From contig OY969425.1 in the NCBI GenBank assembly GCA_963699255.1, positions 450,001 through 482,000 on the forward strand: 32,000 nt of DNA, in the 5' to 3' direction. The notes beneath the pieces were generated by a model. It made no database searches. It worked only from the letters and a program-made list of their open reading frames with translations, and was not told where the DNA came from. How positions within the stretch are numbered: the first letter of the stretch is position 1; each line of letters opens with the position of its first letter. Source of the DNA: an uncultured bacterium (GTDB lineage: Bacteria; Margulisbacteria; WOR-1; CAVSGV01). A program made the translations under genes and the position numbers. Below, piece after piece: positions 15,347-32,000 of this stretch.

Positions 15347-15360
15347 AAAAAATAGCAATT

Positions 15361-15386
15361 CACAATGACACAATGAACAACAATGT
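15361..15386 (+). repeat. left inverted-repeat arm flanking the Avd-like gene (CACAATGA CACAATGA ACAACAATGT)
   Basis: It matches the reverse complement of 15833-15858 at 22/25 with one 1-nt gap. Confidence 0.7.
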
Positions 15387-15434
15387 TGCCTCGCTTACGC
15401 TCGGCGGTTAATATATAATAATGCACAATCAACT

Positions 15435-15800
15435 ATGAAATTCGACATTAGAGACAGATCTAAAAAGTTCGCTATAAGAGTAATTAAACTTATTAATAAG
15501 TTCTCAAAGGAACTGGCTTTACAGGAGATCGCGCATCAGTTGGTCAGATCTGCCTGCTCGATAGGCGCTAATCTTGAAGAGGCAGATGCTGCTTCTTCGC
15601 GAAAAGATTTCTTCCATAAAGTATCGATTTCTTATAAAGAAGCGAAAGAAACAAGATATTGGCTTGACTTGATCCTTGAAGCAGAACTGCTTAAGAACCA
15701 ATCAAATATAAAAGAGGCTGAAGCTTTGCGCAACGAAGCTATTGAATTAAGCAGGATCTTATTTACGATTTTTGAAAAGAAGGATAAAAATAATTGTTAA
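15435..15800 (+). CDS. four-helix-bundle protein (23S rRNA intervening-sequence protein / Avd-like family)
   Basis: 121 aa. Family signature LVRSACSIGANLEEA...SRKDFFHKVSISYKEAKETRYWLDLI. TATAAT (15414-15419) lies upstream. Confidence 0.85.
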   Translation: MKFDIRDRSKKFAIRVIKLINKFSKELALQEIAHQLVRSACSIGANLEEADAASSRKDFFHKVSISYKEAKETRYWLDLILEAELLKNQSNIKEAEALRNEAIELSRILFTIFEKKDKNNC

Positions 15801-15819
15801 AGAGTAATAATTTTGATGA

Positions 15820-15843
15820 TGTCGCGGAGCGACACTTTGTTGT
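15820..15843 (+). terminator. small hairpin with a T-rich tail downstream of the Avd-like gene
   Basis: TGTCGC gga GCGACA (15820-15834), followed by CTTTGTTGTT. Confidence 0.3.
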
Positions 15844-15858
15844 TAATTGTTAATTGTG
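15833..15858 (+). repeat. right inverted-repeat arm flanking the Avd-like gene
   Basis: CACTTTGTTGTTAATTGTTAATTGTG is the reverse complement of CACAATTAACAATTAACAACAAAGTG. It overlaps a possible ribF promoter: TTGTTA 15840-15845, 17 nt, TATTAA 15863-15868. Confidence 0.7.
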
Positions 15859-15872
15859 AAATTATTAATTAA

Positions 15873-16802: not shown

Positions 16803-16822
16803 TAAAGGGGGAAGGGGGGATT
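16769..16822. other. two-tier C-rich/G-rich hairpin between convergent ribF and the histidine kinase
   Basis: The inner stem CCCCCTTTA (16793-16801) / TAAAGGGGG (16803-16811) contains the ribF stop codon. The outer stem is AATCCCCC (16769-16776) / GGGGGATT (16815-16822). There is no adjacent U-tract on either strand. Confidence 0.55.
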
Positions 16823-16832
16823 CACGCGTTCT

Positions 16833-18989
16833 TTATTGCGTCGCCGGCAGCTCTACTGTGAAAGTCGTTCCCTCGCCGACCTTGGACTTTATCTTGACTT
16901 CCCCTTTATGCTCCTCGACGATCCTGCGCGTTATTGCGAGCCCCAGTCCGGTGCCGCCTTCCTTTGTCGTGAAGAAAGGCGCGAAGAGCTTCTTCAGGTT
17001 CTCTTCGGAGATCCCGACCCCCGTGTCCTTGATGTCGATGCACACTTTTTTAATGAAGTCGTCCACGTAATAGGTCTTAACGGTAAGGGTGCCGCCGTTC
17101 GGCATTGCCTGGGCGCCGTTCATTATCAGGTTAAGGAATATCTGCATCATCTGCTGGGGATCCACGGTCACCATCGGGACCTCGCTGAATTCCTTGACGA
17201 CCTTCACGTTAAGCTTCTTGAAGGATATCTCGGATAGCCTTATGGTCTTATCAAGGATGTCGTTTATCTGCAGAGGTTCCTTGATGAGCTTTGCGGGCTT
17301 GGCGAAGGAAACAAGGTCATTGACTATCCTGTTAAGCCGATCAATCTCAGGAGGCACTATCTGCGTGAACTTCTCCCTGAACTCGCGGTCATCGTAGCGC
17401 TCCGCCATCATCTGGACGAATAGCTGAAGCGATGTGAGGGGGTTCCTGATCTCGTGCGCTATTCCCGCGGCCATTGTCCCCAGAGCGGCTAGCTTTTCCG
17501 ACTGCACCAGCTGGTCCTTTGTCTCTTTCAGCTCCTGGAATTGTTTCATCAGGTCGCTGTACATTATGGCGTTCTCCACCGCGACCGCGGCCTGGTTGGA
17601 CAGGGTGGAGAGGAGCTGGATGTCCTCGTTCGTGTACATGTCGCCCGATTTTTTCTCGCCGATGCAGAACACGGCTACAAGCTTGTTCCCTATATACTTG
17701 CCCCTGCTGATAGAGGGGACGCATATTTGGGCGTGGAGCTGTTCCATTTCCTTTTTGATGGCGTTCAGCCGTTTTCTTTCTTCAGGCAGGATCATTTTAT
17801 TTTCAAGGGTGTGCTTTATTTCGTCCTTAAGGAGTATTCTCTTGGCTGCGAACAGGTGCTTGAATAATTCATGGTTATCGCTCAAGGCAAGCCCGAGCAG
17901 TTCCTTGCTTTTTCCCGCGAACGCTTTTACAACGTAACGGTGGCCCGCTTCTTCATAAATCAATGCTGAGGCCTCCTCCAGGAACATGTCTCTGGCAAGT
18001 ATCCTTGTTGACAGCCTGATCAGCCGGTCGATATCGGTCAACAAGCTTAACGCCTCGCTTGATTTCTTCAAGGTGTTTTGATAATCGACTTTTTTCTTGA
18101 AGAAATATTCGTTGGTGATCTCGGTAATAAAACTTTCAAGGGGTTTATAGCCGACCGCGATCGCAAAAGCGGTGATGATAGTAGCAACCCACTGGTTTAT
18201 ACCAAGAGTCGACTGGAATAGATTTTGACCCAGGAATATCAAGAAAGAATAAACGCCGACAATAGCCGCCATGAGGGTTGAATAGATAATGCCTTTTTTG
18301 ATGACAACTTCTATGTCCATGAGGCGGTGACGGACAATGGCATAACCCATCATAATACTGTAAACAACGACTAAAAAATTATCTATTGGGGGAGTTTCAA
18401 TCTTAAACACTAAAAGTAAATAGAAAAGCGCGCCTATTATTACGGTTGAATATGCTATCAATAAGTACGTCAACTGTACTTTTTTAAATCCTTCGGATTG
18501 TTTTCTAGCTTTATATAATTCATATAACCCATAAAATGAGGCAATAGTAAAGAAAAGAATATAAATATACCAAAATGGCCCTGGGGATGCTATATACCTA
18601 AATGAAATCTTGTGTGTGACTTCGGGAATGTAGATTGATCTAAAAAAGAGATTTAAGATAACGAAAAAAAACGAACAAAAATATGAACTATATATTCTGT
18701 ACTTTAATTGTTTCGCTCTATTTATTATTATTAAAATTGAATGTAAAAAAGATGATGGTGCAAACGCAGCCCCAAGATATAAGAATTTATCAATTAATAT
18801 GTTAGTCCCAGCGTCTGTAAAAGTGCTTTCCATAAAACAGCCAGACACCCAAACAGCAATTGTTATGCTTAGCCAAAGAAATACTCTATTGATTGGTGAT
18901 TTCCAATTATAAAAAAACACAAAAACCCCGACACATAATACTGTCAGCCATGCTATCAACGAGGAAAGAGAATATAATGTAAAAATCAT
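16833..18989 (-). CDS. sensor histidine kinase (N-terminal 7TM sensor module, GAF-like, HisKA, HATPase_c)
   Basis: 718 aa with a polytopic N-terminal half. GAF-like CIGEKKSGDMYTNEDIQLLSTLSNQAAVAVENA. H-box AAGIAHEIRNPLTSL. N, G1 and G2 boxes: FLNLIMNGAQAM, DTGVGI, GGTGLGLAI. Confidence 0.9.
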   Translation of the reverse strand: MIFTLYSLSSLIAWLTVLCVGVFVFFYNWKSPINRVFLWLSITIAVWVSGCFMESTFTDAGTNILIDKFLYLGAAFAPSSFLHSILIIINRAKQLKYRIYSSYFCSFFFVILNLFFRSIYIPEVTHKISFRYIASPGPFWYIYILFFTIASFYGLYELYKARKQSEGFKKVQLTYLLIAYSTVIIGALFYLLLVFKIETPPIDNFLVVVYSIMMGYAIVRHRLMDIEVVIKKGIIYSTLMAAIVGVYSFLIFLGQNLFQSTLGINQWVATIITAFAIAVGYKPLESFITEITNEYFFKKKVDYQNTLKKSSEALSLLTDIDRLIRLSTRILARDMFLEEASALIYEEAGHRYVVKAFAGKSKELLGLALSDNHELFKHLFAAKRILLKDEIKHTLENKMILPEERKRLNAIKKEMEQLHAQICVPSISRGKYIGNKLVAVFCIGEKKSGDMYTNEDIQLLSTLSNQAAVAVENAIMYSDLMKQFQELKETKDQLVQSEKLAALGTMAAGIAHEIRNPLTSLQLFVQMMAERYDDREFREKFTQIVPPEIDRLNRIVNDLVSFAKPAKLIKEPLQINDILDKTIRLSEISFKKLNVKVVKEFSEVPMVTVDPQQMMQIFLNLIMNGAQAMPNGGTLTVKTYYVDDFIKKVCIDIKDTGVGISEENLKKLFAPFFTTKEGGTGLGLAITRRIVEEHKGEVKIKSKVGEGTTFTVELPATQ

Positions 18990-18990
18990 T

Positions 18991-20221
18991 TTATTGTTTT
19001 ACATCCCCTTTATTAATCAAGCCAAAATGCCTTGTTTTTGCGTATCGAATCAATTTTAAGAAATTGCCTGTATTTATTTCTGGGCAAGATGGAAGATAGG
19101 GTTTTTCGATATTTGACATATTTTTATTCGCAAAAGAAATATCGTCCATTACAAGATAAGGTGTATATATTTTTCCAACGCTCTTATAATATATTTTTTC
19201 AAGTTTGTTTTGGTCGGTTGGTTCCTTTTCTGTGAAACTGTATCCTGAAATATTCAACTCGTTTAATATTAATGATAGATATTTTGTGTGAGCGAATGTG
19301 CTTTTGTTAGCTATATGATAACTCTCTCCTGGTGCATTGTTAAAACATACTGAACAGATGAATTTGGCCGCATAATCGGCTGGCACGATATTTAGCCCCG
19401 TTTTTAGATTGCAGGTCACTCTTATATTTAGCTCAACATGGGTTTTATATAATGCAGCAAAATCATTAGTTTTATTCATTTTTTCTTTTAAGAAGAATGT
19501 TGCCCAGCCATAGAACAGATCATGGAATTTGTTAATGCTTCCTATTGGCTTTTCAATTAATCGCCCGCAAATCCCAACCGGCCTAAAGATTCTATATTTA
19601 ACTTTTTTAAATGAAAGAAATCTTCGGAAATTAATCTCCGCAAGAAGTTTGGATTCCTCGTAATAATTTCTGAAATTGCCTTTAGTAATAATATCGTCCG
19701 GATAGATTTCTTTTAAAGTTCCCCCAAATGAATATGCAGATCCAGTATAGATCGCCTCATTTGTATCTAATTTATCGATTAATTTAAGAATTCGATTGGT
19801 GCCCTCAATGTTAATATTCTCAAGCTTCTTTTTTGTTTGATTATCCAGCCGGAAGTCTGACAAAGAAGCGAAGTGAAAGAAATAATCTATCTTTTTAGAC
19901 TTTAATATATTCATACTATCTTGAGAAATATCCAGGATCTTCTTTAGCCAAGTCAAAAGAGATTGGAACAATGCATTTATCAATTTTGCTAATAATATCC
20001 TTTGAACTTTTTGGGTTTATTCCAATGTATTCATAGCCCTCATCAGAAAGTATGTTTTTGATTCGCTCGTAAAGTGACACTGTTTTATGAGACCTGCCAA
20101 GAATGAGAATCTGAATATTGCCCAGATTTTTTATGTTTTCCTTGAGGATTTCGAAAACTAAATTTCTCCCGAGTAATCCAGTTGCTCCGGTTATAGCGAT
20201 ACGCAAAATAATTACCCCCAA
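18991..20221 (-). pseudogene. thioester-reductase-like SDR (NAD_binding_4-type) split by a 1-nt frameshift
   Basis: Two overlapping ORFs in different frames. ORF 19916-20221 encodes (M)RIAITGATGLLGRNL...ISFDLAKED. ORF 18991-19983 encodes ...ISQDSMNILKSKKIDYFFHFASLSDF...NIEGTNRIL...YYEESK (YxxxK). Removing one base near 19936-19937 gives a continuous FDLAKEDLDISQDSMNIL. The stop at 18991 lies 1 nt from the HK start at 18989. Confidence 0.7.
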
Positions 20222-20227
20222 TTTTTG

Positions 20228-20237
20228 TTCGTTGATT
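20228..20237 (-). repeat. further copy of the AATCAACGAA core
   Basis: TTCGTTGATT on the plus strand is AATCAACGAA on the minus strand. It lies immediately upstream of the SDR pseudogene's 5' end. Confidence 0.5.
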
Positions 20238-20378
20238 TATTATCCCATACCCTTAAATCACTGTCAATTCTTCCTGTGCCTGTCGAAAAAATCAACTCCA
20301 GTGGACAAGGTTTGTTCTTAATATGCTTTAGTGATAAAATCACAGCCAAATGTTAATCAAAGCAGGTATTATAAATTT

Positions 20379-23222
20379 ATGAATTATTATTCAATTGCTC
20401 AACTGATCAATTTTTTTGCGCTTATGGGGTTAGGATTATTTGTCTTCTTTTATGACCACAGAAACCGGATAAATCAAACATACGCTTTAGTTAACTTTAG
20501 CTTGGCATTTTGGGGGTTATTTTATGTGTTTTGGCTCACTTCCTCTGATTATGATTCTGCTTTCATGTATCTTAAATGGCTAATGATATTTGCCGCGATA
20601 ATTCCTGTAACATTACTGCATTTTGTATTTAACTTTCTAAATATTAAAAAGTACAGAGATATAATCTTACCTGTTACATATTGCCTGGCTTTCATTTGTA
20701 TTGTTTTGGTTTGGCAAAACCTCTTTTTCGACGCAATGAAGCCAAAAATGGCTTTTAGGTTTTGGCCGGACGCCGGAAGATATTTTGTTTATTATCTTAT
20801 ATATTTTTATTATGGTGTTTTGACTTCTTTCTTTCTTTTGATGCGTGCATACTTCAAATCGAGCGGCCAAGAAAGAAATAAGCTCACATATTTTATTTTC
20901 GGCGCTCTTCTTGCTACAATAGGGGGATCTTTAAGTTTTCCATTATGGTATGATATAAATATTCCACCTTTCTTAAATTTATTTGTTTCGGTTTATGCAA
21001 TTGTTGTAGCTTATACAATACTCAAGCATCATCTCATGGGTATCGAAGTTATTCTTCGAAAAGGCCTGATATATTCAGTTATAACAGCGGTTTTCGTTTC
21101 GCTTTATTTCATATTGCTCCGATATTCTAATTTGCTGATTGTCGGAGGCCTTGTTCAGCCGCCATTAAAGATCGTGTATATTATTGCGGCTTTTAGTGCA
21201 ATGATCCTGCATTTCGTCTTAGGGATATTCGTTTTTTTAAACAACCCGCGCAAGCCTCTTAATAGGGTATTTTCACTATTAAGTTTATTTATTTTCGTTT
21301 GGATCGTTGGATGCTGTATTCAAACGGTAATAAAAGATACTTTTATAGCACTTATAACAGAAAAGATCGTTAGCAAGTTTTATGTGTTTACTCCAGCATT
21401 ATTTCTGCACACTTTTTATGAAATATTGCATATAAAACAAAAACGTCTTATATTGTTCAGCTATCTATTTGCTGGTCTTATATGTGTTTTATCATGCACC
21501 AAATTGTTTTTAATGGGTGTTTCATATAATTTTGGAGCAAGATATTTAACCGCCCCAGGGCCATTGTTTTTCCTTTTTCCGCTGTCAATCATAATTAATT
21601 CCTATTTTTCTTTGTCAGGGCTTCTGACAGTTAGGCGGCAAGCATCAGGGTATTATAAGATACAGTTGGATTATTTGTTATTAGCCGGCAGTTTAATTAT
21701 TATTGCCGTGTTTTTCTCCAATTTGCTCATTTACAATGTTGTTTTTACTCCATTTGATGAAATGCTGAATATTGCTTATGGTGTGACGATCGGCTACGCG
21801 ATCCTTCGACACCGATTAATGGACATTACCATAGTCATCCGCAAAGGATTAATATATTCCGTCCTTATCGGCTTTTTTACCGGACTTTATATCCTTATGC
21901 TCTACATTTTCAGCAGCCTTCTTGGCGGGATCGGAGCCAGAACATCGATCTATTTTTCGGCATTACTAATTATCTTTTTCGCGATCACCTTCCAGCCCCT
22001 CCGCGACAAAATACAGGAATTTATCGATAAGGTGTTTTTTCGAGGCAAATACGATTACCAGAAAACGCTTAAAGAATTGAGCCTTGCCGCCAGATCAATT
22101 GCTGGAATTGATGAATTGTTCGATAAAATTTTAACCGCCATCGTAAGCATCATTAAGCTAAAGAATGCCTCCATCTATATGGAGGACAAAAGGGCAGGGC
22201 AGTACATAGTCAGGAAATCGATCGGGATCGATATAAGAAGATCTGGTCTATCCCAAAACGACGATATCATCAGGCAGCTCATATCAAGGAAAGAAGCTAT
22301 CATGTATGACGAAACATCAAAAACTTCCGGGAATGTCGGAAGTTTCATGAGAGACACAGGCGCGGCAATAGTATTTCCGATGATAGCGAAAGATGAACTC
22401 GTCGGCTTCCTCTGCCTCGGAGAAAAGCTTTCCGGAGAGGTCTACAGCAACGAAGATATCGATCTGCTTACAACGCTCTGCAACCAGATGGGCGTGTCTA
22501 TCGAAAACGCTATGCTTTACGAAGATGCCATGGAAGCCCAGAAGCACTTATATCAGGCGGATAAACTTGCGACCGTCGGCGCGCTGGCTGCAGGGCTGGC
22601 CCATGAGATAAAAAACCCCATCGCGGCCATCAAAGGCTTTACGCAGGTCATTGATAGGGCGGTCAAGGAAAACGACCAGGAAACACTGAATGATTTCAAG
22701 GAAGTTGTCCCAAGACAGCTTGACCGTATCAATGAAATTGTTGAAAAACTCCTAACGCTAAGCAAGCCGCAGAGCCTTGTGAAGACCAAGGTTGACATCA
22801 ATAAGCTGCTTACTGACATTATTCGACTTGTTGAGAAGCAGGCGTTGAAACAAAAAGTGCAAATCATAAAAACCTTTGGTGATATCCCGCAGACTCTGGC
22901 CGATCCTCAGCAGCTTACCCAGGCATTTCTTAATCTGATACTGAATGCGATACAAGCTATGCCGGATGGCGGAGCGTTGGAGATCAGAACGAAATCCGTC
23001 GGCACAGATAGTATCCTTGTCGAGTTCATCGATAACGGAGTCGGCATCTCAAAGGACAAGCTGTCGCGTATTTTTGACCCCTTCTTTACCACAAAATCGG
23101 GAGGATCAGGTTTGGGACTCTCCGTAACCCGTAAGATAATACTTGACCATCATGGAAAGATCGAGGTTGAGTCCGAAGCAGGGAAATGGACGAAGTTTAC
23201 CGTAATGGTACCGGTTAGATAA
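20379..23222 (+). CDS. sensor histidine kinase with two tandem 7TM sensor modules, GAF-like, HisKA, HATPase_c
   Basis: H-box AAGLAHEIKNPIAAI, plus FLNLILNAIQAM, DNGVGI and GGSGLGLSV. The module signature appears twice: GLFVFFYDHRNRINQTY from 20433 and GIFVFLNNPRKPLNRVF from 21222. I prefer ATG 20379 over the track's GTG 20331 because TATTAT sits 6 nt upstream of it. Confidence 0.88.
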   Translation: MNYYSIAQLINFFALMGLGLFVFFYDHRNRINQTYALVNFSLAFWGLFYVFWLTSSDYDSAFMYLKWLMIFAAIIPVTLLHFVFNFLNIKKYRDIILPVTYCLAFICIVLVWQNLFFDAMKPKMAFRFWPDAGRYFVYYLIYFYYGVLTSFFLLMRAYFKSSGQERNKLTYFIFGALLATIGGSLSFPLWYDINIPPFLNLFVSVYAIVVAYTILKHHLMGIEVILRKGLIYSVITAVFVSLYFILLRYSNLLIVGGLVQPPLKIVYIIAAFSAMILHFVLGIFVFLNNPRKPLNRVFSLLSLFIFVWIVGCCIQTVIKDTFIALITEKIVSKFYVFTPALFLHTFYEILHIKQKRLILFSYLFAGLICVLSCTKLFLMGVSYNFGARYLTAPGPLFFLFPLSIIINSYFSLSGLLTVRRQASGYYKIQLDYLLLAGSLIIIAVFFSNLLIYNVVFTPFDEMLNIAYGVTIGYAILRHRLMDITIVIRKGLIYSVLIGFFTGLYILMLYIFSSLLGGIGARTSIYFSALLIIFFAITFQPLRDKIQEFIDKVFFRGKYDYQKTLKELSLAARSIAGIDELFDKILTAIVSIIKLKNASIYMEDKRAGQYIVRKSIGIDIRRSGLSQNDDIIRQLISRKEAIMYDETSKTSGNVGSFMRDTGAAIVFPMIAKDELVGFLCLGEKLSGEVYSNEDIDLLTTLCNQMGVSIENAMLYEDAMEAQKHLYQADKLATVGALAAGLAHEIKNPIAAIKGFTQVIDRAVKENDQETLNDFKEVVPRQLDRINEIVEKLLTLSKPQSLVKTKVDINKLLTDIIRLVEKQALKQKVQIIKTFGDIPQTLADPQQLTQAFLNLILNAIQAMPDGGALEIRTKSVGTDSILVEFIDNGVGISKDKLSRIFDPFFTTKSGGSGLGLSVTRKIILDHHGKIEVESEAGKWTKFTVMVPVR

Positions 23223-23225
23223 GCT

Positions 23226-23294
23226 ATCAACGGATATGGAAAACGGACCAACGGATAGGAACGCTATCAACGAATTAAGAACGAATCAACGAAT
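23226..23294 (+). repeat. array of seven direct RAACGRA units at about 10-nt phasing
   Basis: AACG starts at 23229, 23242, 23250, 23260, 23269, 23280 and 23288 (spacings 13, 8, 10, 9, 11, 8). ATCAACGAAT occurs at 23266-23275 and 23285-23294. The array begins 4 nt after the HK2 stop. Confidence 0.75.
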
Positions 23295-23319
23295 GGGGAT
23301 ACAAATATAAATATATGGT

Positions 23320-23354
23320 TGTCGACTTTATCGACACATACTGTCGATTTCGAC
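23320..23354. promoter_or_regulatory. two adjacent operator-like palindromes, TGTCGA-N5-TCGACA and TGTCGA-N2-TCGAC
   Basis: Site 1: TGTCGA 23320-23325 and TCGACA 23331-23336. Site 2: TGTCGA 23342-23347 and TCGAC 23350-23354. The centres are about 20-21 bp apart, and the pair lies about 170-200 nt upstream of the 23526 gene. Confidence 0.45.
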
Positions 23355-23525
23355 GACACTTTCACAAAAATGCAAATGCCAAGATAATGTTTTTGTTGTG
23401 ATAGAAGCAAATAATTATTAATTGAATTGGTAAGAATATTGCTATTTAGATATATATGTATTATTTGTTGTTTGTGGAGGGACTAATGCTTTTAAATCTG
23501 CATTTTAAGGATTGGAGAATATAAC

Positions 23526-26500
23526 ATGGCAAAACGAATGGTATTGTTTATATTGATTATAATTTCGATTTCTATAACCTGCTTTGCTGAAACACGTACA
23601 GTCACAAATACTGCGGATTCAGGAGCAGGATCCCTTAGAAGCGCGCTAAGTGCAGCAGTTTCAGGCGATACCGTAGAATTTAATATCCCAACAACAGATC
23701 CGGGCTATACAACAGAATCAGGCGCCAGCTGGTGGAGAATAAAAAATCAAAGCTCCTCCTATTTAGGAGTAAATGGCGGTGTTTCAGTATTAGGTTCTTC
23801 ACAAACTTCTAATCAAGGGGATACTAATACTTTTGGCCCAGAAATAGAGCTTACTACAACTGCAACGAATACATGTTGGTATGGATTTTCATTCAATGCG
23901 GACCACGTTACTATCGAAGGATTTACGATCACAAACTTTCCAAGACAGGGCATATCAATTAACGGGAATTATAGCCATATATATAATAATTATATTGGCA
24001 TTTCACCAAAAGGGGACAGGGCTGATCCTAACAGGCAGGGTATTGGACTATCTTGCGCTTATAACAGAATAAATAATAATGTTATTTCAGGTAATAATTG
24101 GGATGGTATTTACATGTACGGCACATCTAGCAATGAGATTGTCGGAAATTATATCGGAGTTGATCATTTGGGAACAGCTAAAATAGGAAATGCGATTGGA
24201 ATAAATATCGATATTTGTACAGTCCCAACAATAAACAATACAATTGAGAGCAATATTATTTCTGGGAATGGTGACGGGATATGGGCTGATGGAAATCATA
24301 GCGACCTATATGTTAACAATAACGTTATTTTAAATAATTATATTGGAACGGATAAGAACGGCACCCTTGAACTTGGCAATAATAACACAGGCATTTCATT
24401 TTACCATGGGCCTAATCATAATTTAATTAAAGGGAATGTTGTTTCAGATAACGGGTCTTATGGGATACGTTTTTATGACAGAATAAATTACAATCAGATC
24501 GTTTCAAACTATATTGGCACTGACAAATTTGGAACAGGTAATTTAGGGAATAGTTATCACGGAATATATATCGGTGATCCCGGATGGATTATTAATCCTT
24601 CAAGCTATAATACCATTGGTGGATCCGGAGTAGGCAACACAATTGCTTTTAACGGCAAAGCTGCGCCGGGATGTAACGGCATATGCATAGATGGCACAAA
24701 CAATGATGCTTTCAATAAAATCTCTTCAAACTCGATTTTTTCAAACAGCGGGCTTGGTATAGCGCTTAATAACTCTGCAAATCAGAATATAAATTATCCA
24801 TCAATTGTTTCTGCCGAATATAGTGAACTCACGGATCAAACAACAGTTTGCGGGACTGCTAGCATCAATAATATTATAGAGATATTTAAGGCTGAGCCGG
24901 ATCCTTCGGGATCAGGGGAAGGAAAAGTTTTTCTTGGATCAACCACAGCTGAATCCAATGGGAGCTGGTCGATAGCGGTAAGCGGACTAACGCCCAGTGA
25001 TGAGGTCACTTCTACAGCAACCGATAACATGGGAAACACTTCGGTATTCTCTCAAAACAAGCCGGTTGTCACAGCTGTATTTACCTATCGCCCAGATCTG
25101 GCTATCGCTACTTTGGAATCGGGATCCGATTACATTGGTGAGAATATTTCCGATCCAAGCGGGGAAGGTCAAACAATGGTTCAGTATTCTTATGCTAATC
25201 AGAAGAATATATTTTATGTTTTGCTCAATAATTCGGGAGCTTTAACCGATGATTTAATTGTTACGGGAGAATCGGGAGCAAGCGGATGGGATGTAAAATA
25301 CTTTGACGGAAAATCATCTTCAACCGAAATAACCTCACAGGTCACAAGCGGCGGATGGTCATCTGGTGATTTGGCCTCCGGAGTTAGCAGAGAGATCAGG
25401 GTTGAAATTGTACCCAGTGGAAGCGGCATTTCTACTGAAGATGTCATGATCACACTCACCTCATCAAATGACACTCAAAGAAAAGACGTTGTTAAAGCGG
25501 TTTCAGTTGTGGTCAATACTGCCCCTGCCATCTCACTGATACTGCCTAACGGAGGAGAAGCTCTATCAGGCGGGAACAATTATAATATTATTTGGAGTTG
25601 TACCGATCCGAATGGTTTCACTTCTGAGCCGATCTCAATATATTATTCAACTAATGAAGGAGCAAGTTATCTTAATGTGATCACTTCCGAATACGCGAAT
25701 AGTGGAAGCTATTCCTGGTTTGTCCCCCATATAAAAGCAACTAATGTGCGGATAAAGATCGTTGCGGAAAATCTTTTAGGCAATATTGCCTCAGATGAAA
25801 GCGACGCAAGCTTTACGATTTCGCCTTGTAAACCTTATGTTAATCCAGTTACATCTCCTACGAATATAATTCATCATACTATCACAGGGACCATGTCTGC
25901 TTATACCCTTGCAGTTAAAGTTAACGGGTCAACCTCTGGGGTTGAAACATGGCTATCAAGTTGCACATGGGAATATAATGCGTCACTTTCAAGCGGCGTC
26001 AATGATTTCAGCTTTCAGGCTGTGGACATTGCTTCTAACGAGAGCGATCCGCTTAATTTGTCGATATTGCTTCAGGGTTTGAGCTTTTCCTCCCCGGGAA
26101 CAGGGACTTCTACGATGATCCCAATCGGCGCTTCTACCATAGAGCCGACAATCTCTGCGACCGTATTTGCGAGTTCCGCAAATGATTTGCCCGGGCCGCC
26201 GCCATCAGGGGTTTTACTGTTTGGCAACGCGATCGATTTCATTTCAAATGTGTCGAGTTTTTCATTGCCAATATATATCACTATGCCTCTTTCAGGCGGG
26301 GTTGCTAATCCCATCCCATATTATTGGGACAATGGAACAAGCTCATGGAAAAACAGCGGGTTGAGCGTAACAAGTAAGACCAATTCTTCAATTACTTTTA
26401 CCACTAATCATCTTTCGATTTACGCGATATTTGGCGTAACTGGATTACTTTCGGGTGTAAGGGTATACCCAAGTCCTTATAAGATAGGCGACCCTCCGAA

Positions 26501-26720
26501 CGGTGTTATCTTTGACCAGTTAGCGGGCAATGAAACCATCAGAATATACACTATCTCAGGGGAACTTGTGAGATCGCAAAATGTTTCAGGGGCTTCATGG
26601 ACATGGAATATCAAGAACGACAGCGGCCAATTATGCGCGAGAGGGATCTACCCGTTCATCATTTCAAATCCCGACGGCGATAAGCGCACAGGGAAAATCG
26701 CGATTATCAATAAAGGATAA
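23526..26720 (+). CDS. secreted right-handed parallel beta-helix repeat protein with Ig/CARDB-like domains and a T9SS/FlgD-Ig-like C-terminal sorting domain
   Basis: Signal peptide MAKRMVLFILIIISISITCFA. Reiterated NNYIG(I/V/T)(S/D)xxG(D/T) beta-helix turns. Ig-like block ISLILPNGGEAL...YSWFVPHI. The C-terminal ~85 aa read VRVYPSPYKIG...IRIYTISGELVRS...GIYPFII...GKIAIINKG. GGAG lies upstream of the ATG. Confidence 0.85.
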   Translation: MAKRMVLFILIIISISITCFAETRTVTNTADSGAGSLRSALSAAVSGDTVEFNIPTTDPGYTTESGASWWRIKNQSSSYLGVNGGVSVLGSSQTSNQGDTNTFGPEIELTTTATNTCWYGFSFNADHVTIEGFTITNFPRQGISINGNYSHIYNNYIGISPKGDRADPNRQGIGLSCAYNRINNNVISGNNWDGIYMYGTSSNEIVGNYIGVDHLGTAKIGNAIGINIDICTVPTINNTIESNIISGNGDGIWADGNHSDLYVNNNVILNNYIGTDKNGTLELGNNNTGISFYHGPNHNLIKGNVVSDNGSYGIRFYDRINYNQIVSNYIGTDKFGTGNLGNSYHGIYIGDPGWIINPSSYNTIGGSGVGNTIAFNGKAAPGCNGICIDGTNNDAFNKISSNSIFSNSGLGIALNNSANQNINYPSIVSAEYSELTDQTTVCGTASINNIIEIFKAEPDPSGSGEGKVFLGSTTAESNGSWSIAVSGLTPSDEVTSTATDNMGNTSVFSQNKPVVTAVFTYRPDLAIATLESGSDYIGENISDPSGEGQTMVQYSYANQKNIFYVLLNNSGALTDDLIVTGESGASGWDVKYFDGKSSSTEITSQVTSGGWSSGDLASGVSREIRVEIVPSGSGISTEDVMITLTSSNDTQRKDVVKAVSVVVNTAPAISLILPNGGEALSGGNNYNIIWSCTDPNGFTSEPISIYYSTNEGASYLNVITSEYANSGSYSWFVPHIKATNVRIKIVAENLLGNIASDESDASFTISPCKPYVNPVTSPTNIIHHTITGTMSAYTLAVKVNGSTSGVETWLSSCTWEYNASLSSGVNDFSFQAVDIASNESDPLNLSILLQGLSFSSPGTGTSTMIPIGASTIEPTISATVFASSANDLPGPPPSGVLLFGNAIDFISNVSSFSLPIYITMPLSGGVANPIPYYWDNGTSSWKNSGLSVTSKTNSSITFTTNHLSIYAIFGVTGLLSGVRVYPSPYKIGDPPNGVIFDQLAGNETIRIYTISGELVRSQNVSGASWTWNIKNDSGQLCARGIYPFIISNPDGDKRTGKIAIINKG

Positions 26721-26724
26721 TAGC

Positions 26725-27633
26725 ATGATTCAAAAAATGATTATTTATTCTTTGGTTTTTATGTTTACAACTATCCCAGTTCTGGCTGCAAGCGATTCCA
26801 CCGGAACTACCGCAGCAAACTATTTAAAAATATCCGGTGGTGTGCGTGCGGCAGGGATGGGGGATGCCTTTATTGCGGTATCTGACGATTCAAGTGCGAT
26901 ATATTGGAACCCGGCCGGTCTAGTGCAGAATGATGCAATTGAGCTTTGTTCAGCATATACCAAATGGTTTCAGGACATTTCTCTTACGAATATCAGCGCA
27001 TCAAAGCACCTGTGGGATAGTGATTATGCCGGCATGTCGCTCACGCTATTAAATATGGGCGAAATCGAAGAAACAACACTTGCGAACCCTGATGGGTCTG
27101 GCAGAAGTTTCTCACCTTCGGATATGATAGCTGTTACTTCTTACGCAAGAAAGTTATCACCTGTCTTCTCGATCGGCATAAATGTTAAGTACATCAGCGA
27201 TACGATAGACAAATCAAATGTTACTGGATACGCATTTGATCTGGGAACGCTATATTCCACTCCTTTTAAAGACCTGAATATGGGGCTGTCAATAAGGAAT
27301 ATTGGCGGTTTATCCGGAGTTGATTCTCCTTTGCCAGTCAATATTGGTTTAGGGTTGGCATATAAATTACTTAATAGAAAGAACCTCTTGCTGGCTTGCG
27401 ATGTAAATTTCCCGAATGACGATCAAATGTCCATTCACATTGGATGCGAATACAATATTGTCGAATGGTTCGCGTTGAGGATCGGATGCAATACAAGAAA
27501 GGACGATGGTTCAGGCGGAAATCTAGGCGTCGGATTGGGCCTCATTTGGAATGGATTGGCTGTTGATTATGCCTATGCTCCTTATGGGGATCTTGGGGAA
27601 GCACATAGAGTATCGTTTGGAATTAGAATGTAA
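26725..27633 (+). CDS. PorV/PorQ-like outer-membrane beta-barrel protein
   Basis: The start is set at ATG 26725 (MIQKMIIYSLVFMFTTIPVLAAS, a signal peptide), not the track's 26581, which overlaps the upstream gene. The N-terminal signature is TTAANYLKISGGVRAAGMGDAFIAVSDDSSAIYWNPAGL. Alternating beta-strand-like segments run to the C-terminus. Confidence 0.68.
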   Translation: MIQKMIIYSLVFMFTTIPVLAASDSTGTTAANYLKISGGVRAAGMGDAFIAVSDDSSAIYWNPAGLVQNDAIELCSAYTKWFQDISLTNISASKHLWDSDYAGMSLTLLNMGEIEETTLANPDGSGRSFSPSDMIAVTSYARKLSPVFSIGINVKYISDTIDKSNVTGYAFDLGTLYSTPFKDLNMGLSIRNIGGLSGVDSPLPVNIGLGLAYKLLNRKNLLLACDVNFPNDDQMSIHIGCEYNIVEWFALRIGCNTRKDDGSGGNLGVGLGLIWNGLAVDYAYAPYGDLGEAHRVSFGIRM

Positions 27634-27724
27634 ATATCTAAACAAGGATAAAACGATGATAAAAGTAATGTCATACAAAATTAGCATGGTTTTTGAGGTA
27701 AAACTATTAGAAAGGATGTAAACT

Positions 27725-28480
27725 ATGTTTATTAAAAAAGCTTTAGTTTTATTAATTGTTATACTTATTCCTTCTGTCGTGTATGCCGCAGACATTTCCG
27801 CTGAGGGGCTGATAGCTAAATTGAAGGATACACGAGCTCTCATTCTTGACCTCCAGGCGGATACCAAAACAACAATTACTTCAAACATCTCAATTCCCGG
27901 AGCGCCGTCAAAAGGGCCACAGACGGTAACACAAATTGGCCATATCTGGCAGAAGGGCAGTGACAAGTCGAAGGTTGAGATAACAAGTCCAATGAAGCAG
28001 ATCACTATCACCAAGGGTTCGATCATGACGATGATCAGCCCGGATACGGGACAAAAAGTGACGCAAGATTTGAGCAAGGGGTTAGGGGCTGGGGGACAGG
28101 GGATGGATGCTACCAAGGCGTTGGATTATTTTAATTTGACGGTAAGCACTAACGAGGCTGGAACTGGGGAAGCAAAAGTGTATGTGATATCCGGCACGCC
28201 GAAAGAGGCGAATCAATTCCTTGGCAGGATGGATTTCTTCATTGATGCCGAAAAATATATTCCGATCCGCATCGCGATGTATACGCCGCAGGGTGCTCTT
28301 ATGTCGCTTTCGGAGATGGAGTATGAACCGATAGAAGTATCAACAGGCGAGACAGTATATGTGCCAAAGAGGATCAAGTCCGTTGTAACAATGCAGATGG
28401 GATCGATAAATACGGAAATGGAGTATGAGAATATTCAGGTGAATCAGGGGATCGAGGATGACGTGTTTGAAGCGCAATAG
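27725..28480 (+). CDS. LolA-like / outer-membrane lipoprotein-sorting-like periplasmic protein
   Basis: Signal peptide MFIKKALVLLIVILIPSVVYA. The pattern LIAKLKD...LDLQAD..., FFIDAEKYIPIRIAMYTPQGAL and the terminal NQGIEDDVFE is typical of LolA_like/DUF4367 proteins. This call comes from my recall of the family pattern. Confidence 0.55.
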   Translation: MFIKKALVLLIVILIPSVVYAADISAEGLIAKLKDTRALILDLQADTKTTITSNISIPGAPSKGPQTVTQIGHIWQKGSDKSKVEITSPMKQITITKGSIMTMISPDTGQKVTQDLSKGLGAGGQGMDATKALDYFNLTVSTNEAGTGEAKVYVISGTPKEANQFLGRMDFFIDAEKYIPIRIAMYTPQGALMSLSEMEYEPIEVSTGETVYVPKRIKSVVTMQMGSINTEMEYENIQVNQGIEDDVFEAQ

Positions 28481-28481
28481 C

Positions 28482-28553
28482 AATCAACGAATGACTCAAA
28501 AAATATATGAATGGAGGTAAATCTCTTACTATTCGTTGATTCGTTTGGATTCG
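28482..28553. repeat. perfect 11-bp inverted repeat AATCAACGAAT / ATTCGTTGATT (38-nt spacer) plus extra TTCG units
   Basis: 28482-28492 pairs with 28531-28541. ATTCG recurs at 28531, 28539 and 28549. The same 11-mer occurs at 23284-23294. The element starts 2 nt after the LolA-like stop. Confidence 0.8.
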
Positions 28554-28583
28554 ATGATAGCTGTAATTGAAGGAGGAAAAAGT

Positions 28584-29342
28584 ATGAAAAAGTTTCTATT
28601 GTCCCTCTGCTTCTGTTTGCTCCTTGTTCCGTCAGTTTATGCAGGCACCAATGAAGCATGGCTTCCCTGGACGCCTGTCCAAGCGTCGCTAATTTCCCCG
28701 ATAGCATTGCCCCCGATGACTGATAATGTATATGGAGCAAGAGGGAATCTTATATACGGCTGGAATAAAAGAGTGATCGGCTTTGATGCGGGAGTGATCC
28801 AGCATTCTGAAAGGACGACCGGGTTCCAGATGGGTATGCTTGCAAATATTTCAGGAACGATGGAAGGTATTGCTATGCCGTTTTCCGTGTTCCCCTGCAT
28901 AAATGTTTCGCGCGATTTCGCAGGCCTGCAATTGTCTTACATATGTAATTATTCCGATAATATTACTGGATTCCAGGGAATACCGATCTTCAATGTTGCA
29001 AAAAACGTGTCCGGAATTCAGATCGCTTTTATAGTCAATAACGCGCAAGACGTGTGTTTCTGGCAATCTGCGTTTCTTGCTAATATTTCCGAGAACTTAT
29101 CCGGATATCAGGGGGGCTTCTCGAATACCGTGAATAATGAAATGATCGGATGGCAATCCGGACTTGCGATCAATAACGCGAAGAAAATGAGCGGTTTGCA
29201 GAACTCGTGGCTTCTTAACAGGGCAAAAGAACTTCACGGCATCCAGTTCGGCGCGATAAATTACACTGAGGAGATCAATGGAATTCAAATCGGTTTGATA
29301 AATATTAATAAGAACAGGATATTGCCGTTTATTAATTTTTAA
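28584..29342 (+). CDS. exported repeat protein (about 11 x 15-residue G-x-Q...N units, C-terminal ...LPFINF)
   Basis: AGGAGG (28571-28576) lies 7 nt upstream of ATG 28584. Signal peptide MKKFLLSLCFCLLLVPSVYA. Nine units are exactly 15 aa, e.g. GFQGIPIFNVAKNVS, GIQIAFIVNNAQDVC and GWQSGLAINNAKKMS. It resembles the Leptospira-type surface repeat lipoproteins that I recall only vaguely. Confidence 0.7.
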   Translation: MKKFLLSLCFCLLLVPSVYAGTNEAWLPWTPVQASLISPIALPPMTDNVYGARGNLIYGWNKRVIGFDAGVIQHSERTTGFQMGMLANISGTMEGIAMPFSVFPCINVSRDFAGLQLSYICNYSDNITGFQGIPIFNVAKNVSGIQIAFIVNNAQDVCFWQSAFLANISENLSGYQGGFSNTVNNEMIGWQSGLAINNAKKMSGLQNSWLLNRAKELHGIQFGAINYTEEINGIQIGLININKNRILPFINF

Positions 29343-29374
29343 GATCAAAAATGTCCGTAATAAAAGGTAATAAT

Positions 29375-30556
29375 ATGAAAAGATTGATTTTCACAGTGTT
29401 AACGATATTAATGGTTTCCAGCGCCATATGGCTTTTATCCGGTTGCGGATCTAATCCGACGGGAGGGGGAGGCGGAGGAAGGAGTGTTCCCAATAGTGGG
29501 TTGCCATTAGTATATGTCTCTACCACTGGAAGTGATGAAACTGGCACTGGGACGTCAGAGTTGCCTTATAAAACAATTCAAAAGGGCCTTATGAAAGTTG
29601 CTTCAGGAGGCTTGGTAAGTGTAGAGGCTGGGATATACACTGAAAATATTACATGGTGTGCCAATGCAAATGTTACCCTTAGAGGAGCATCTTATGAAAC
29701 AACAAGCATCGATGGTAACTTTTCAGGAATGTGTGTGAATATCTACAACACGTCAAATGTTAAAACAGCGACTATAGAGAGTTTTACTATCATGAAAGGA
29801 CATGCAGTTAATAAAGGAGGTGGAATATGCCTACATGGGAATGCGATGACATTATATCTAAATAATTGCATTATTAAGGATTGCTCAGCAGAAGGCTATC
29901 CCAATGGAGGGGGAATTGCTATTTTTGATTGGCCAACTCTTTTAGAAGCAACAAATTGCAAAATAATAAATAATAATAGTGATCTCTATTACGGAGTAGG
30001 TGGGATATTGTGCGAGGGCATTCTAAATCTATCAAAGTGTGAGGTTTCTGGCAACACAGGAGGGTTCGGTGGGGGTGTTGTATGTTTATATAATGGCAAA
30101 ATATCAAATTGTTTGATAACCAATAATATCGCGGGTGGGATATCTCTTTTCGATTATTATGGGATGAGTGTCGATGTTGTTAATTGTACAATTGCATCAA
30201 ATGAATCACAAGGTAGTTATACTCCAGGAAGAGGTGTTTATTCTTATTATAGTTTAAGTAAAATAATTAATTGTATAATTTGGGGTAATGTATCTCAAAT
30301 TAGCGTCGCGACTGATAATTATGGTGATCCATATGGAACATTAACAGTTAATAATTGTGATGTCCAAGGTGGCTATACAGGCGTTGGCAATGTTGATGCA
30401 GATCCCTGTTTTTCATCAGGTTCCGATTTTCATTTAACAAGCAGTTCCCCTGCAATTGCAACGCAGGGTGGCACACAAGAGGGTTGCCCAGCTTGTGACT
30501 ATGATGGGCATACAAGAACATATCCATATTCGATGGGAGCATATGAATATGATTAA
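29375..30556 (+). CDS. beta-helix lipoprotein with a choice-of-anchor-Q-like C-terminus
   Basis: Lipobox at MKRLIFTVLTILMVSSAIWLLSGC. VYVSTTGSDETGTGTSELPYKTIQKGL (DUF1565-like start of a pectate-lyase fold). GGGI-type turns. C-terminus: IIWGN...NVDADPCFSSGSDFHLTSSSPAI...DYDGHTR...MGAYEYD. Confidence 0.78.
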   Translation: MKRLIFTVLTILMVSSAIWLLSGCGSNPTGGGGGGRSVPNSGLPLVYVSTTGSDETGTGTSELPYKTIQKGLMKVASGGLVSVEAGIYTENITWCANANVTLRGASYETTSIDGNFSGMCVNIYNTSNVKTATIESFTIMKGHAVNKGGGICLHGNAMTLYLNNCIIKDCSAEGYPNGGGIAIFDWPTLLEATNCKIINNNSDLYYGVGGILCEGILNLSKCEVSGNTGGFGGGVVCLYNGKISNCLITNNIAGGISLFDYYGMSVDVVNCTIASNESQGSYTPGRGVYSYYSLSKIINCIIWGNVSQISVATDNYGDPYGTLTVNNCDVQGGYTGVGNVDADPCFSSGSDFHLTSSSPAIATQGGTQEGCPACDYDGHTRTYPYSMGAYEYD

Positions 30557-30601
30557 CGTTTCTTCATATTTTCGATTATATTATGAAAGGAAGTATTCTA
30601 A

Positions 30602-31093
30602 ATGAATAAACTGATCCGATCGATCACCCCGGTTGTGCTAGTCTTGTTTGTTTCCGTCTTTGTTTGTCCATGCTGGGCAAAAGAAGGAGATATAACGGCA
30701 AAGGTTGAGATGCAAGGCGGAGTTGATCAAGGCACAATATTTGTAATGAAAGCGAGCTTATTCCGAGAAGATGCTTCGGGTATGAAGAATCCAATCTTAG
30801 AAAACAACGCCATTAGGATTGAGGTTCCTGATGGATTCAATGTTCGAAGCGAAACAATTTCAACCACCAACGAAGGACAACACATATATCAGATAGTTGC
30901 CCCAATAAATGAAAAAGAGTATCCCATCACATTAATATTCGACAATCAAAAAGAAGCCCCTTTGAGATTCGGCTATAAGATCAAAGTTGTTAATCCAGGA
31001 TCATACTATATGCAATTAGCGATAGGTTTTGGAGTGGTAATATTACTGTTGATCGGCTTAAAAGTGTTTTGCGATTCTTTTATAATAAAATGA
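30602..31093 (+). CDS. hypothetical exported protein with a C-terminal TM anchor
   Basis: 163 aa. N-terminal hydrophobic signal (VVLVLFVSVFVCPCWA), a beta-rich middle, and a C-terminal helix (LAIGFGVVILLLIGLKVF). GAAAGGAAG lies upstream. The stop overlaps the next ATG. Confidence 0.6.
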   Translation: MNKLIRSITPVVLVLFVSVFVCPCWAKEGDITAKVEMQGGVDQGTIFVMKASLFREDASGMKNPILENNAIRIEVPDGFNVRSETISTTNEGQHIYQIVAPINEKEYPITLIFDNQKEAPLRFGYKIKVVNPGSYYMQLAIGFGVVILLLIGLKVFCDSFIIK

Positions 31094-32000
31094 AAACAAA
31101 ATTAACTTTATTATTAATGATGTTTATGCTGCTGTTTTTAAGCAAAGCATTTTTTAGTTGTTATGGCGTAGAATCAGTAATCAAACCCTCACCCAATTAT
31201 TTAGTAATTTTGGTTCACGGTATAGCTGAAACCAGCGATATATTTGATGATGATGGTAGCGGTCATCTAAAACCTTATCTAGAAGATTCCCTAAGTCTTC
31301 CAGGCTATGTCTATGCTTACGATTTTAATGATAACAAAGGATCAAATGTTGTCGCCGCAGATGAACTAGGCAATCAGTTTATCCCTCGGGCATTAAATGA
31401 TTTTAAAGCATGGTATGCCAGTAAAAACCACATAGCAGTTAATGATATCCCGCAAAATGTTATCCCTCAAAAAGTCGTTTTAATAGCCAAGAGTGAGGGC
31501 GGCCTAGCTTCCAGAGTGTACCTGACTTCCAATTATTATCATGATAATGTAAGAAAGCTCATCACATTGGATACCCCTCATCTAGGCTCAGATGCGGTAA
31601 CTTACAAAAAGCTACTATATACACCGGAGAATGTTGCCATGACTATGGCATATGCTGGTGTTGGCTTGGGATACATAATATTGCAAATGCAGGCACATAC
31701 AGCTTCCTTTGCGGATATATATTTTGATGGCGCGATATTTGCAGGGATTGTATCGCCAACAGAGCAGTTCATTTTAAAAGATTTTGTTGCAAAATGGGGC
31801 GATCCTGCCCTAGATGAGATGGACCCGGAAGGGGATTTTATTAAGCATTTGAAAGGTGCTGAAGTCCTCCCAAATAAATCGCCGATTGAATACCGATTGG
31901 TTTCTGCGCATGGCTTTCCATCTCCGGATATAGAAGGGATTAAAAGCTTTTATTTGCTTAAAGGAATTCCTCTAATTAATGCCATTGCAACCCCTTTTGA
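31090..32000 (+). CDS. alpha/beta hydrolase, PGAP1/lipase-like (5' part; runs off the window)
   Basis: Absent from the track because it is open-ended. Manual translation from ATG 31090 gives MKTKLTLLLMMFMLLFLSKAFFSCYG...NYLVILVHGI...VVLIAKSEGGLASRVYL...LITLDTPHLGSD..., with no stop to 32000. The nucleophile elbow is A-K-S-E-G. Confidence 0.72.
   Translation, partial: MKTKLTLLLMMFMLLFLSKAFFSCYGVESVIKPSPNYLVILVHGIAETSDIFDDDGSGHLKPYLEDSLSLPGYVYAYDFNDNKGSNVVAADELGNQFIPRALNDFKAWYASKNHIAVNDIPQNVIPQKVVLIAKSEGGLASRVYLTSNYYHDNVRKLITLDTPHLGSDAVTYKKLLYTPENVAMTMAYAGVGLGYIILQMQAHTASFADIYFDGAIFAGIVSPTEQFILKDFVAKWGDPALDEMDPEGDFIKHLKGAEVLPNKSPIEYRLVSAHGFPSPDIEGIKSFYLLKGIPLINAIATPF

Follow-up and report, generated by a model that had tools for sequence, protein, structure and literature searches.

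In a 32,000-nt stretch of DNA from an uncultured Margulisbacteria bacterium (contig OY969425.1, positions 450,001 to 482,000; the whole stretch is called the window below), seven plus-strand genes, g1 to g7, run from position 23526 to beyond position 32000. We found that this block is a composite of two separable units. Its first two genes are a cassette of ~4.2 kb that was inserted between the promoter of an older operon and the ribosome-binding site of the first gene of that operon, g3. The cassette encodes a surface protein (g1), the tail of which we treat as a remote type IX secretion system (T9SS) C-terminal domain (CTD), and an outer-membrane barrel of the PorV/PorQ family (g2). The order of CTD gene and then PorV-like barrel gene is strongly conserved, as a two-gene unit, in many phyla. 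The reading that we favour, with a probability of roughly 0.6, is that two units are combined here in one operon, unit A (g1 and g2) inserted before unit B (g3 to g7), and that g2 serves as the dedicated shuttle and anchor of g1.

The CTD gene and its PorV-like neighbour

The assignment of g2 to the PorV-like barrels, made from the sequence alone in an earlier sequence-only reading of this DNA, was borne out by hidden Markov model searches: the protein scored 193.8 bits with the PorV/PorQ family model NF033709 (E 5.4e-57, residues 28-301), for which the cut-off is 90. It stayed below the equivalog cut-offs for PorQ (NF033711, 113.9 against 220 bits), PorV (NF033710, 106 against 250) and PorV2 (NF052325, 78.6 against 325), and none of the 11 barrels tested, g2 and 10 homologues from other loci, reached any of the three, most of them scoring slightly higher on PorQ than on PorV. 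The models of PorP/SprF (TIGR03519) and BamG gave 24 bits (cut-off 90.55) and 19.7 bits (cut-off 250), respectively. A profile of g2 and 25 homologues matched the PorV of Flavobacterium johnsoniae (6h3i_F, E 1.9e-35), and an AlphaFold2 (AF2) model of g2, with 14 strands and a confidence score (pLDDT) of 81.8, had as its top Foldseek match the PorV chain 8gl6_F of the substrate-bound T9SS complex 8GL6 (E 1.2e-15, TM 0.76). Public gene calls let g2 begin at an alternative start, 26737.

The claim that g1 ends in a T9SS-type CTD stood in part. The domain matched the CTD segment of the PorZ model (NF052228) with 45 bits; with the curated CTD models it gave 16.3 bits for TIGR04183 (cut-off 23), 18.4 bits for FlgD_ig (PF13860, cut-off 27) and no match to PF18962 (cut-off 27 bits). 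Its relatives fared better. When 67 tail proteins, the C-terminal fragment of g1 and 66 relatives, were scanned at E<=0.01, 54 matched CHU_C, 52 FlgD_ig and 45 Por_Secre_tail, and because of these matches we place the g1 tail, as a remote case, in the T9SS CTD superfamily broadly defined. An exhaustive search with the C-terminal 234 residues of g1, which comprise the pre-CTD domain and the CTD, found 3648 cluster representatives, almost all of them aligned at their own C-terminus; a word-indexed search with a 94-residue CTD query gave one match. The motifs PxP, IxIYxxxGxLV, GxYxY and GKxxIIK are visible when the g1 CTD is aligned with the CTDs of the neighbours of other barrels, and CTDs of the g1 type match best the retained CTDs of PorZ and PorU. 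The C-terminal 230 residues of g1 are conserved in the proteins encoded 5′ of the closest g2 homologues. Further towards the N-terminus lies a right-handed beta-helix (residues ~142-330, nt 23949-24515) with 40 bits for NosD and 38 bits for Beta_helix. A sequence search of solved structures with g1 gave no match.

A scan for the g2 family in one genome per species returned 80 loci, with a protein of Aerophobetes as the best match (38% identical). The family occurs in phyla of the Fibrobacteres-Chlorobi-Bacteroidetes (FCB) group (Ignavibacteria, Bacteroidota, Rhodothermales, Calditrichota, Marinimicrobia, Kryptoniota, Zixibacteria and Cloacimonadota) and also in Poribacteria, Aerophobetes, Elusimicrobia/Endomicrobia, Margulisiibacteriota and Glassbacteria. 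With a jackhmmer CTD profile grown from g1, a CTD-ending protein was found directly 5′ of 63 of the 84 PorV-like genes that have an upstream open reading frame (ORF). In de-overlapped gene sets a CTD stood at position -1 of the barrel in 55 of 76 cases (72%), compared with 3-35% at the other positions from -5 to +5. Among the closest relatives of g2, which are 39-52% identical to it, the pair was kept wherever the upstream gene is visible. The supposition that the cargo gene and the barrel gene form a conserved unit was therefore confirmed. A literature search turned up no paper on PorV-like or PorV2 pairs outside the Bacteroidota, nor any on PorV/PorQ-family pairs.

The proteins encoded 5′ of the barrels fall into three groups: a family of ~1000-1200 residues in FCB phyla (49 loci), TonB-dependent receptors that have no CTD (15 loci), and 10 singleton or two-member groups of unrelated passengers, mostly outside the FCB group, which include beta-helix, S8 protease, invasin-Ig, FG-GAP and CarboxypepD_reg proteins. 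Even in the pairs of the closest g2 relatives the passengers differ (NosD-like, S8 protease, invasin-Ig and fn3/LTD). Loci fetched for comparison with the window were numbered L001 to L101. The pair of L101 stands alone as a two-gene island flanked by formate-dehydrogenase and cobalamin genes, and several genomes have more than one pair, with two in tandem in L025 and with L031, L037 and L038 all coming from one metagenome-assembled genome (MAG).

Directly before its CTD, g1 carries the residues H962-L963-S964 (HLS; nt 26409-26417), and cleavage is predicted between L963 and S964. The Pfam model GPS scored 23.0 bits on g1's C-terminal fragment and 21.4 bits on the full protein, its cut-off being 22.5. 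In an alignment of 140 cluster representatives the region is conserved, with W in 111 of 121, H in 102 of 129 and S or T in 109 of 129 sequences, and the CTD, with its VYPNP start, begins ~17 residues after the conserved S/T. Cargo proteins of other pairs, those of Endomicrobia (L011), Margulisiibacteria (L083), L089, L091 and L101, also have motifs of the HLS type; such motifs are absent from the FCB upstream family of ~1000-1200 residues. Microbial GAIN (MAIN) domains have been reported to cleave themselves at H-F-S and to adjoin a cell-surface anchor (bioRxiv 10.64898/2026.05.12.724683), and the motif of g1 agrees with that cleavage site. A putative autoproteolysis motif in front of the CTD favours a CTD that would be retained as an anchor in g1.

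The FCB upstream proteins were considered as PorU or PorZ and rejected: they match solved structures through the CTDs of PorU and PorZ only, and have no Peptidase_C25 or propeller match. In four FCB loci (L010 1043-12323, L014 1354-12373, L023 1358-12237 and L074 1620-12573) we observed a block of five genes, encoding in order a CTD protein, a TonB-dependent receptor whose N-terminus is of the CarboxypepD_reg type, a CTD protein of ~1100 residues, the PorV-like barrel and a fifth protein, which has a CTD in L014, L023 and L074 and is a solute-binding protein in L010. This block resembles a nutrient-uptake locus with CTD-anchored proteins in place of SusD-type lipoproteins. A different arrangement was seen in a single-amplified genome of Margulisiibacteriota (L083 15539-19726), where a gene that follows a second CTD protein encodes 1395 residues that start with a PorV-family barrel (62 bits), to which sequence resembling leucine-rich repeats is fused.

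Two units at one locus

The sequence-only reading had taken the seven genes, or the trio of cargo, shuttle and LolA-like protein, for one module. This did not hold, as g3 to g7 were found without the pair and the pair was found without a LolA-like gene. L092/L093 represent a close relative, with the RelA-PurA-QueC-Amj-RibF-kinase order of the window and a PurA in the same 90% cluster. There the kinase gene is followed directly by g3, g4, a lipoprotein gene, a g6-like gene and a gene for a 4754-residue protein, and g1 and g2 are missing. In L094/95, g3 comes next after histidine kinases with a spacer of ~1.1 kb. In L094/95, L098, L099 and L100 (upstream side visible only in L094/95 and L098), g3 is accompanied by g4-, g5-, g6- or g7-like genes and by no PorV-like gene. 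Near the g3 homologues of L092/93, L094/95, L096/97 and L098, the upstream side of which is visible, no PorV-like gene was found. In Margulisiibacteriota g3 stands in an unrelated context, and a metagenome scan with g3 gave 3 loci. Conversely, no LolA-like gene follows the pair in those g2 relatives that have a visible downstream side, and phmmer with g3 detected no homologue in any g2-derived locus. The order g1-g2-g3 was specific to this genome.

DNA alignment with L092 locates the insertion. In the window the region 23320-23388 lies upstream of g1, whereas the L092 sequence that it aligns to immediately precedes the g3 homologue, which is why we regard g1 and g2 as an inserted cassette. The g2-g3 spacer still contains the final ~45 nt that lead up to g3. 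The upstream region contains two TGTCGA...TCGACA repeat elements (23320-23336 and 23342-23358), after which comes the best sigma-70-like promoter match, TTCACA-16-GATAAT (23361-23388). The elements TGTCGAC..TCGACA and TGTCGA..TCGACGACA and the promoter-like site are kept in both the window (23320-23388) and L092 (9851-9890). They look like a binding site of a regulator, perhaps one that partners the neighbouring 7TM-GAF kinases, next to which the window has no response-regulator gene. Between the stop codon of the histidine kinase gene, which they follow directly, and the conserved TGTCGA repeats there are four direct copies of CAACGRAT, 19-21 nt apart (23228-23294), which are absent from the aligned region of L092.

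No plus-strand terminator-like site was found in 23000-32000, so that the seven genes are probably one transcript. Because unit A lies between the unit B promoter and the ribosome-binding site of g3, its insertion would have brought all seven genes under one regulated promoter. The coordinates in Table 1 for the seven ORFs were re-derived from the sequence and agree with the sequence-only reading, as do the gaps between successive genes from g1 to g6 (4, 91, 103, 32 and 45 nt), the 4-nt ATGA overlap of g6 and g7, the lipobox of g5 and, by eye, a basic and then hydrophobic N-terminus resembling a signal peptide on all seven products. Two statements on composition needed qualification. Shine-Dalgarno sites of the AGGA/GGAG type precede g1 to g6, whereas g7, which overlaps g6, has none. 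The block is more AT-rich than positions 1-18000 (GC 0.409 versus 0.469), but it is not uniquely so, because positions 18001-23525 are lower still at 0.368.

Table 1. Features of the g1-g7 locus, numbered by position in the window
Feature	Positions	Strand	Description
Conserved regulatory region	23320..23388	+	Two TGTCGA...TCGACA repeats and a sigma-70-like promoter match; putative function
g1	23526..26720	+	Exported 1064-residue surface protein: signal peptide, beta-helix, immunoglobulin (Ig)-like domains, GPS/MAIN-like domain, CTD
GPS/MAIN-like autoproteolysis motif of g1	26316..26429	+	Residues 931-968; Pfam GPS
T9SS-type CTD of g1	26457..26717	+	Residues 978-1064 (87 residues); VYPSPY...IRIYTISGELV...GIYPFII...GKIAIINKG
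g2	26725..27633	+	PorV/PorQ-family 14-stranded outer-membrane barrel, 302 residues; starts 4 nt after g1
g3	27725..28480	+	Periplasmic LolA-like (TP_0789-like) protein; first gene of the older operon
g4	28584..29342	+	Exported LA_2272/VC2662-type protein; ~12 repeats of 15 residues; ends ...LPFINF
g5	29375..30556	+	Lipoprotein: LLSGC lipobox, Gly-rich linker, beta-helix, weak choice-of-anchor-Q tail
g6	30602..31093	+	163-residue protein; signal peptide and C-terminal hydrophobic helix
g7	31090..32000, continuing beyond the window	+	5′ part of the gene of a giant exported protein; PGAP1-like alpha/beta-hydrolase N-terminus, then Ig-like repeats

Unit A (23526-27633) would be the cognate pair. 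Unit B, which extends from 27725 to beyond 32000, would be the operon ancestral to the lineage and is situated downstream of 7TM-GAF histidine kinases. It specifies a LolA-like protein, probably a periplasmic carrier, a repeat protein of the LA_2272 type, a lipoprotein with a beta-helix, a small membrane protein and a giant protein of the lipase/Ig-repeat kind, which in relatives would carry a CTD of its own. The LolA-like nature of g3 was verified with PF17131 (44 bits over residues 144-249, cut-off 30). The 29 detectable g3 homologues, many of them 60-88% identical, all have PF17131; the best named relative, from Margulisiibacteriota, is 46% identical, and a sequence search found no related solved structure. 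The product of g4 passed the cut-offs of NF047435 (35.9 bits, cut-off 30) and NF047436 (33.3 bits, cut-off 25) and failed that of the VC2662 equivalog (54.5 bits, cut-off 140). The 15-residue repeat that had been noticed in it gave autocorrelation peaks at lags of 15, 30 and 45. The single-sequence AF2 model of g4 is unreliable (pLDDT 53.7). Orthologues of g4 follow g3 in L092/93 and L100.

The beta-helix of g5 matched Beta_helix with 34.4 bits, while the score for choice-of-anchor-Q missed its cut-off (21.7 bits against 25); the g5 homologue in L098 scored 404 bits. No Pfam or NCBIfam model matched g6, which has weak to moderate homologues in the same operon in L092, L094 and L098. The PGAP1 type of g7 was substantiated (29.4 bits, cut-off 24.3). 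Contig L001 extends g7 to at least 1159 residues with Big_13/FlgD_ig matches, and the L092 orthologue, a single protein of 4754 residues with faint CHU_C and weak FlgD_ig matches, spans both the g7 ORF and the next ORF of L001. These two ORFs, the second of 748 codons, overlap in different frames at L001 9396-9507 (~34480-34595 in window numbering, past its end), which means that the genome has a frameshift or pseudogene here or else that the Logan contig was misassembled.

The other genes of the window include housekeeping genes, those for HisRS, AspRS, PurA, QueC, Amj and RibF and two 7TM-HisKA kinases. The kinase genes, on opposite strands, flank an epimerase-like gene in 16833-23222, where the window is richest in AT (GC 0.33-0.37), and kinases of the same type precede the g3 operon in L092-L095, so that the linkage of kinase and operon is conserved. 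Genes for a "23S rRNA intervening sequence protein" (PF05635) lie near the locus, in the window at 15435-15800 and in relatives at L094 17118-17555 and 20617-20750 and L095 7805-8002; their differing positions suggest mobile or duplicated copies. An ORF of 400 codons with a TTG start (3295-4497), between the gene for a pyridoxal-phosphate enzyme and hisS, has no Pfam or NCBIfam match. An Rfam search of the window gave no match.

How the pair may work, and competing explanations

According to our favoured reading, g1 would be a Sec-exported surface protein composed of a beta-helix/Ig-like passenger, a GAIN/MAIN-like autoproteolytic domain with the HLS site and a T9SS-type CTD. The barrel g2 would bind the uncleaved CTD on the outer face of the outer membrane and so act as both shuttle and anchor of g1. 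After self-cleavage between L963 and S964 the passenger could be held non-covalently and shed under force. We guess that the lipoprotein g5 may be a cargo of g3; the roles suggested for g3 to g6 are likewise inferred. Four points weigh against this reading. None of the three CTD models gives the g1 CTD a score that reaches its curated threshold. The choice of an insertion here over a deletion in the relatives rests on four independent relative loci without the pair. If g2 is the only PorV-family protein of the genome, it may serve all CTD cargo, g7 included, rather than g1 alone. Finally, the FCB block with its TonB-dependent receptor raises the possibility that the role of this barrel subfamily is tied to nutrient uptake and not to simple anchoring.

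Crossing of the outer membrane would probably still need a SprA-type translocon encoded elsewhere. The sequence-only reading had seen no other T9SS core gene in the window, and none was found in our searches; the one candidate for PorK/GldK, an FGE-sulfatase ORF at 8711-9829, is EgtB/FGE-like and was rejected (GldK 50 bits, cut-off 350). In an Aerophobetes MAG (L008), the locus with the best named match to g2, a gene at 56-4600 encodes a 1514-residue protein that gave 155 bits with the SprA model TIGR04189 (E 1.3e-45, cut-off 200), and it lies 2.4 kb upstream of the CTD/PorV-like pair. This protein has about two-thirds of the length of SprA and no match among solved structures by sequence, and it may represent a translocon of reduced form that exists beyond the FCB phyla. 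Apart from it, no SprA-like ORF was found in the window or in L001-L100. Because this SprA-like gene adjoins a pair, we think that this genome, too, is on balance likely to have a SprA-type translocon elsewhere.

It is unlikely, in our estimate, that g2 is simply the general PorV/PorQ protein of an ordinary T9SS, with g1 as one of many cargo proteins and an adjacency of no specific meaning. Such a system would fit the clear membership of g2 in the PorV/PorQ family, the T9SS-type CTD of g1, and the giant g7 orthologue of relatives, which has a CTD and no adjacent barrel; g2 may also be the only close paralogue, as among its 120 best database matches only g2 itself comes from the 1.77-Mb contig. 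Yet g2 scores far below the PorV and PorQ equivalog cut-offs, the order of CTD gene and barrel is found at 72% of loci in many phyla with changing passengers, several genomes have more than one pair, and the pair moves as a two-gene unit.

There is a slimmer chance that, outside the FCB group, CTD protein and PorV-like barrel make up a minimal two-partner system for display without a T9SS, in which the barrel, perhaps with BAM, the machinery for beta-barrel assembly, both exports and holds the protein. Pairs are present in MAGs of Elusimicrobia/Endomicrobia, Margulisiibacteriota, Aerophobetes, Poribacteria and Glassbacteria, outside the phyla with a reported T9SS (PMC11285876). They can be isolated two-gene islands, and a gene resembling Omp85/BamA occurs in L044, 3.4 kb downstream of its pair. 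Barrels of the FadL and PorV structures, with 14 strands and an N-terminal plug, are too narrow for a folded beta-helix protein, and the SprA-like gene beside the Aerophobetes pair also argues against a pair that is independent of the T9SS. A related and rather doubtful possibility is a widespread non-FCB display device in which a GAIN/MAIN-like passenger has a CTD held permanently by a dedicated barrel, encoded immediately downstream, and is served by a reduced SprA-like translocon or by no canonical T9SS motor and ring. If true, this self-cleaving passenger with its barrel would be a bacterial outer-membrane counterpart of the layout of adhesion G-protein-coupled receptors.

Very little speaks for the earlier proposal of a self-contained delivery module, made up of all seven genes or of cargo, barrel and LolA-like carrier and working without other T9SS parts. 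The tightly packed co-directional genes with exported products, the lack of an intervening terminator-like site and a window devoid of T9SS core genes do suit it, but the two units occur apart from each other, g1 and g2 are an insert downstream of a conserved promoter, and in Aerophobetes a SprA-like gene accompanies the pair. That g2 is an uptake channel of the FadL/TodX type for hydrophobic molecules, unrelated to g1, can practically be dismissed: FadL, TodX and TbuX are the next fold matches after PorV and there are weak Pfam UPF0164 and Toluene_X signals, but PorV is the best match in sequence and in fold, and a systematic partnership with CTD proteins is not expected of a lipid channel.

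Given the dedicated role of g2 that we favour, the conserved pair would extend the principle of cognate shuttles to the PorV/PorQ family and give a genomic rule for matching cargo to anchor, and its presence in phyla without a reported T9SS would point to T9SS-like export beyond the Bacteroidota. Through the GAIN/MAIN-like motif before the CTD, an autoproteolysis domain that has only lately been described in microbes would be connected with an anchor in the outer membrane, which suggests force-releasable surface proteins in diderm bacteria. The window itself shows the capture of a pair cassette under the kinase-linked promoter of an existing adhesin operon.

Comparison with known systems

The channels FadL and TodX and BamG of the Bacteroidota BAM complex share the 14-strand barrel fold with g2, and BamG binds a surface protein through extracellular loops (PMC12578637). 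Their sequence similarity to g2 is, however, much weaker than that of PorV (BamG model 19.7 bits, cut-off 250), and they are not linked with CTD proteins. The flexirubin locus of F. johnsoniae, with its LolA2/LolB2, is comparable to that of g3 in that a specialised envelope locus, and not the general Lol machinery, includes the gene of an extra LolA-fold periplasmic protein (PMC11885536), whereas g3 belongs to PF17131 (TP_0789-like) and has no LolB-like or ABC partner nearby.

MAIN proteins such as YfkN of Bacillus subtilis have a large ectodomain, an autoproteolytic H-[LF]-S site and a surface anchor (bioRxiv 10.64898/2026.05.12.724683), a layout that is predicted for g1 too. The W, H and S positions are conserved in the relatives of g1 and the GPS model is matched by the C-terminal fragment. 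The anchors differ: a sortase signal in the MAIN proteins, and in g1 a putative T9SS-type CTD with a PorV-like barrel in a diderm. The terms "T9SS", "type IX", "type 9" and "PorV" were not found in the main text of the MAIN preprint (bioRxiv 10.64898/2026.05.12.724683).

The pairs of type B CTD cargo and SprF are alike in that the barrel gene comes immediately downstream of the cargo gene, that one genome can have several pairs and that the barrel is a dedicated shuttle or anchor (PMC12618676, PMC9143113). They differ in that g2 belongs to the PorV/PorQ family and not to PorP/SprF, and in that the g1 CTD is type A/FlgD-Ig-like, many of its relatives also matching CHU_C weakly. According to published models, every type A CTD relies on the general PorV, and private shuttles exist for type B cargo only. 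Cognate PorV-like barrels that retain CTDs are a published concept (PMC10202324, PMC12618676), and a review has speculated that such barrels protect CTDs from cleavage (PMC10202324).

A close parallel is found in the attachment complex of Porphyromonas gingivalis, where PorU and PorZ, T9SS proteins with retained CTDs, are bound to PorV and PorQ (PMC10202324), so that a FadL-like 14-strand barrel holds a surface protein by its retained CTD (PMC10202324, PMC10947112). It is also the CTDs of PorZ and PorU that g1-type CTDs match best. On the other hand, g2 is shorter (302 residues) and below both equivalog cut-offs, its partner is a variable passenger and not PorZ or PorU, and the host here is not a known member of the Bacteroidota. 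The barrel and partner genes are adjacent here; in P. gingivalis they are not known to be. Most likely, g2 would hold the retained CTD of g1 at the cell surface, in the manner of PorZ with PorQ, PorU with PorV and type B CTDs with SprF.

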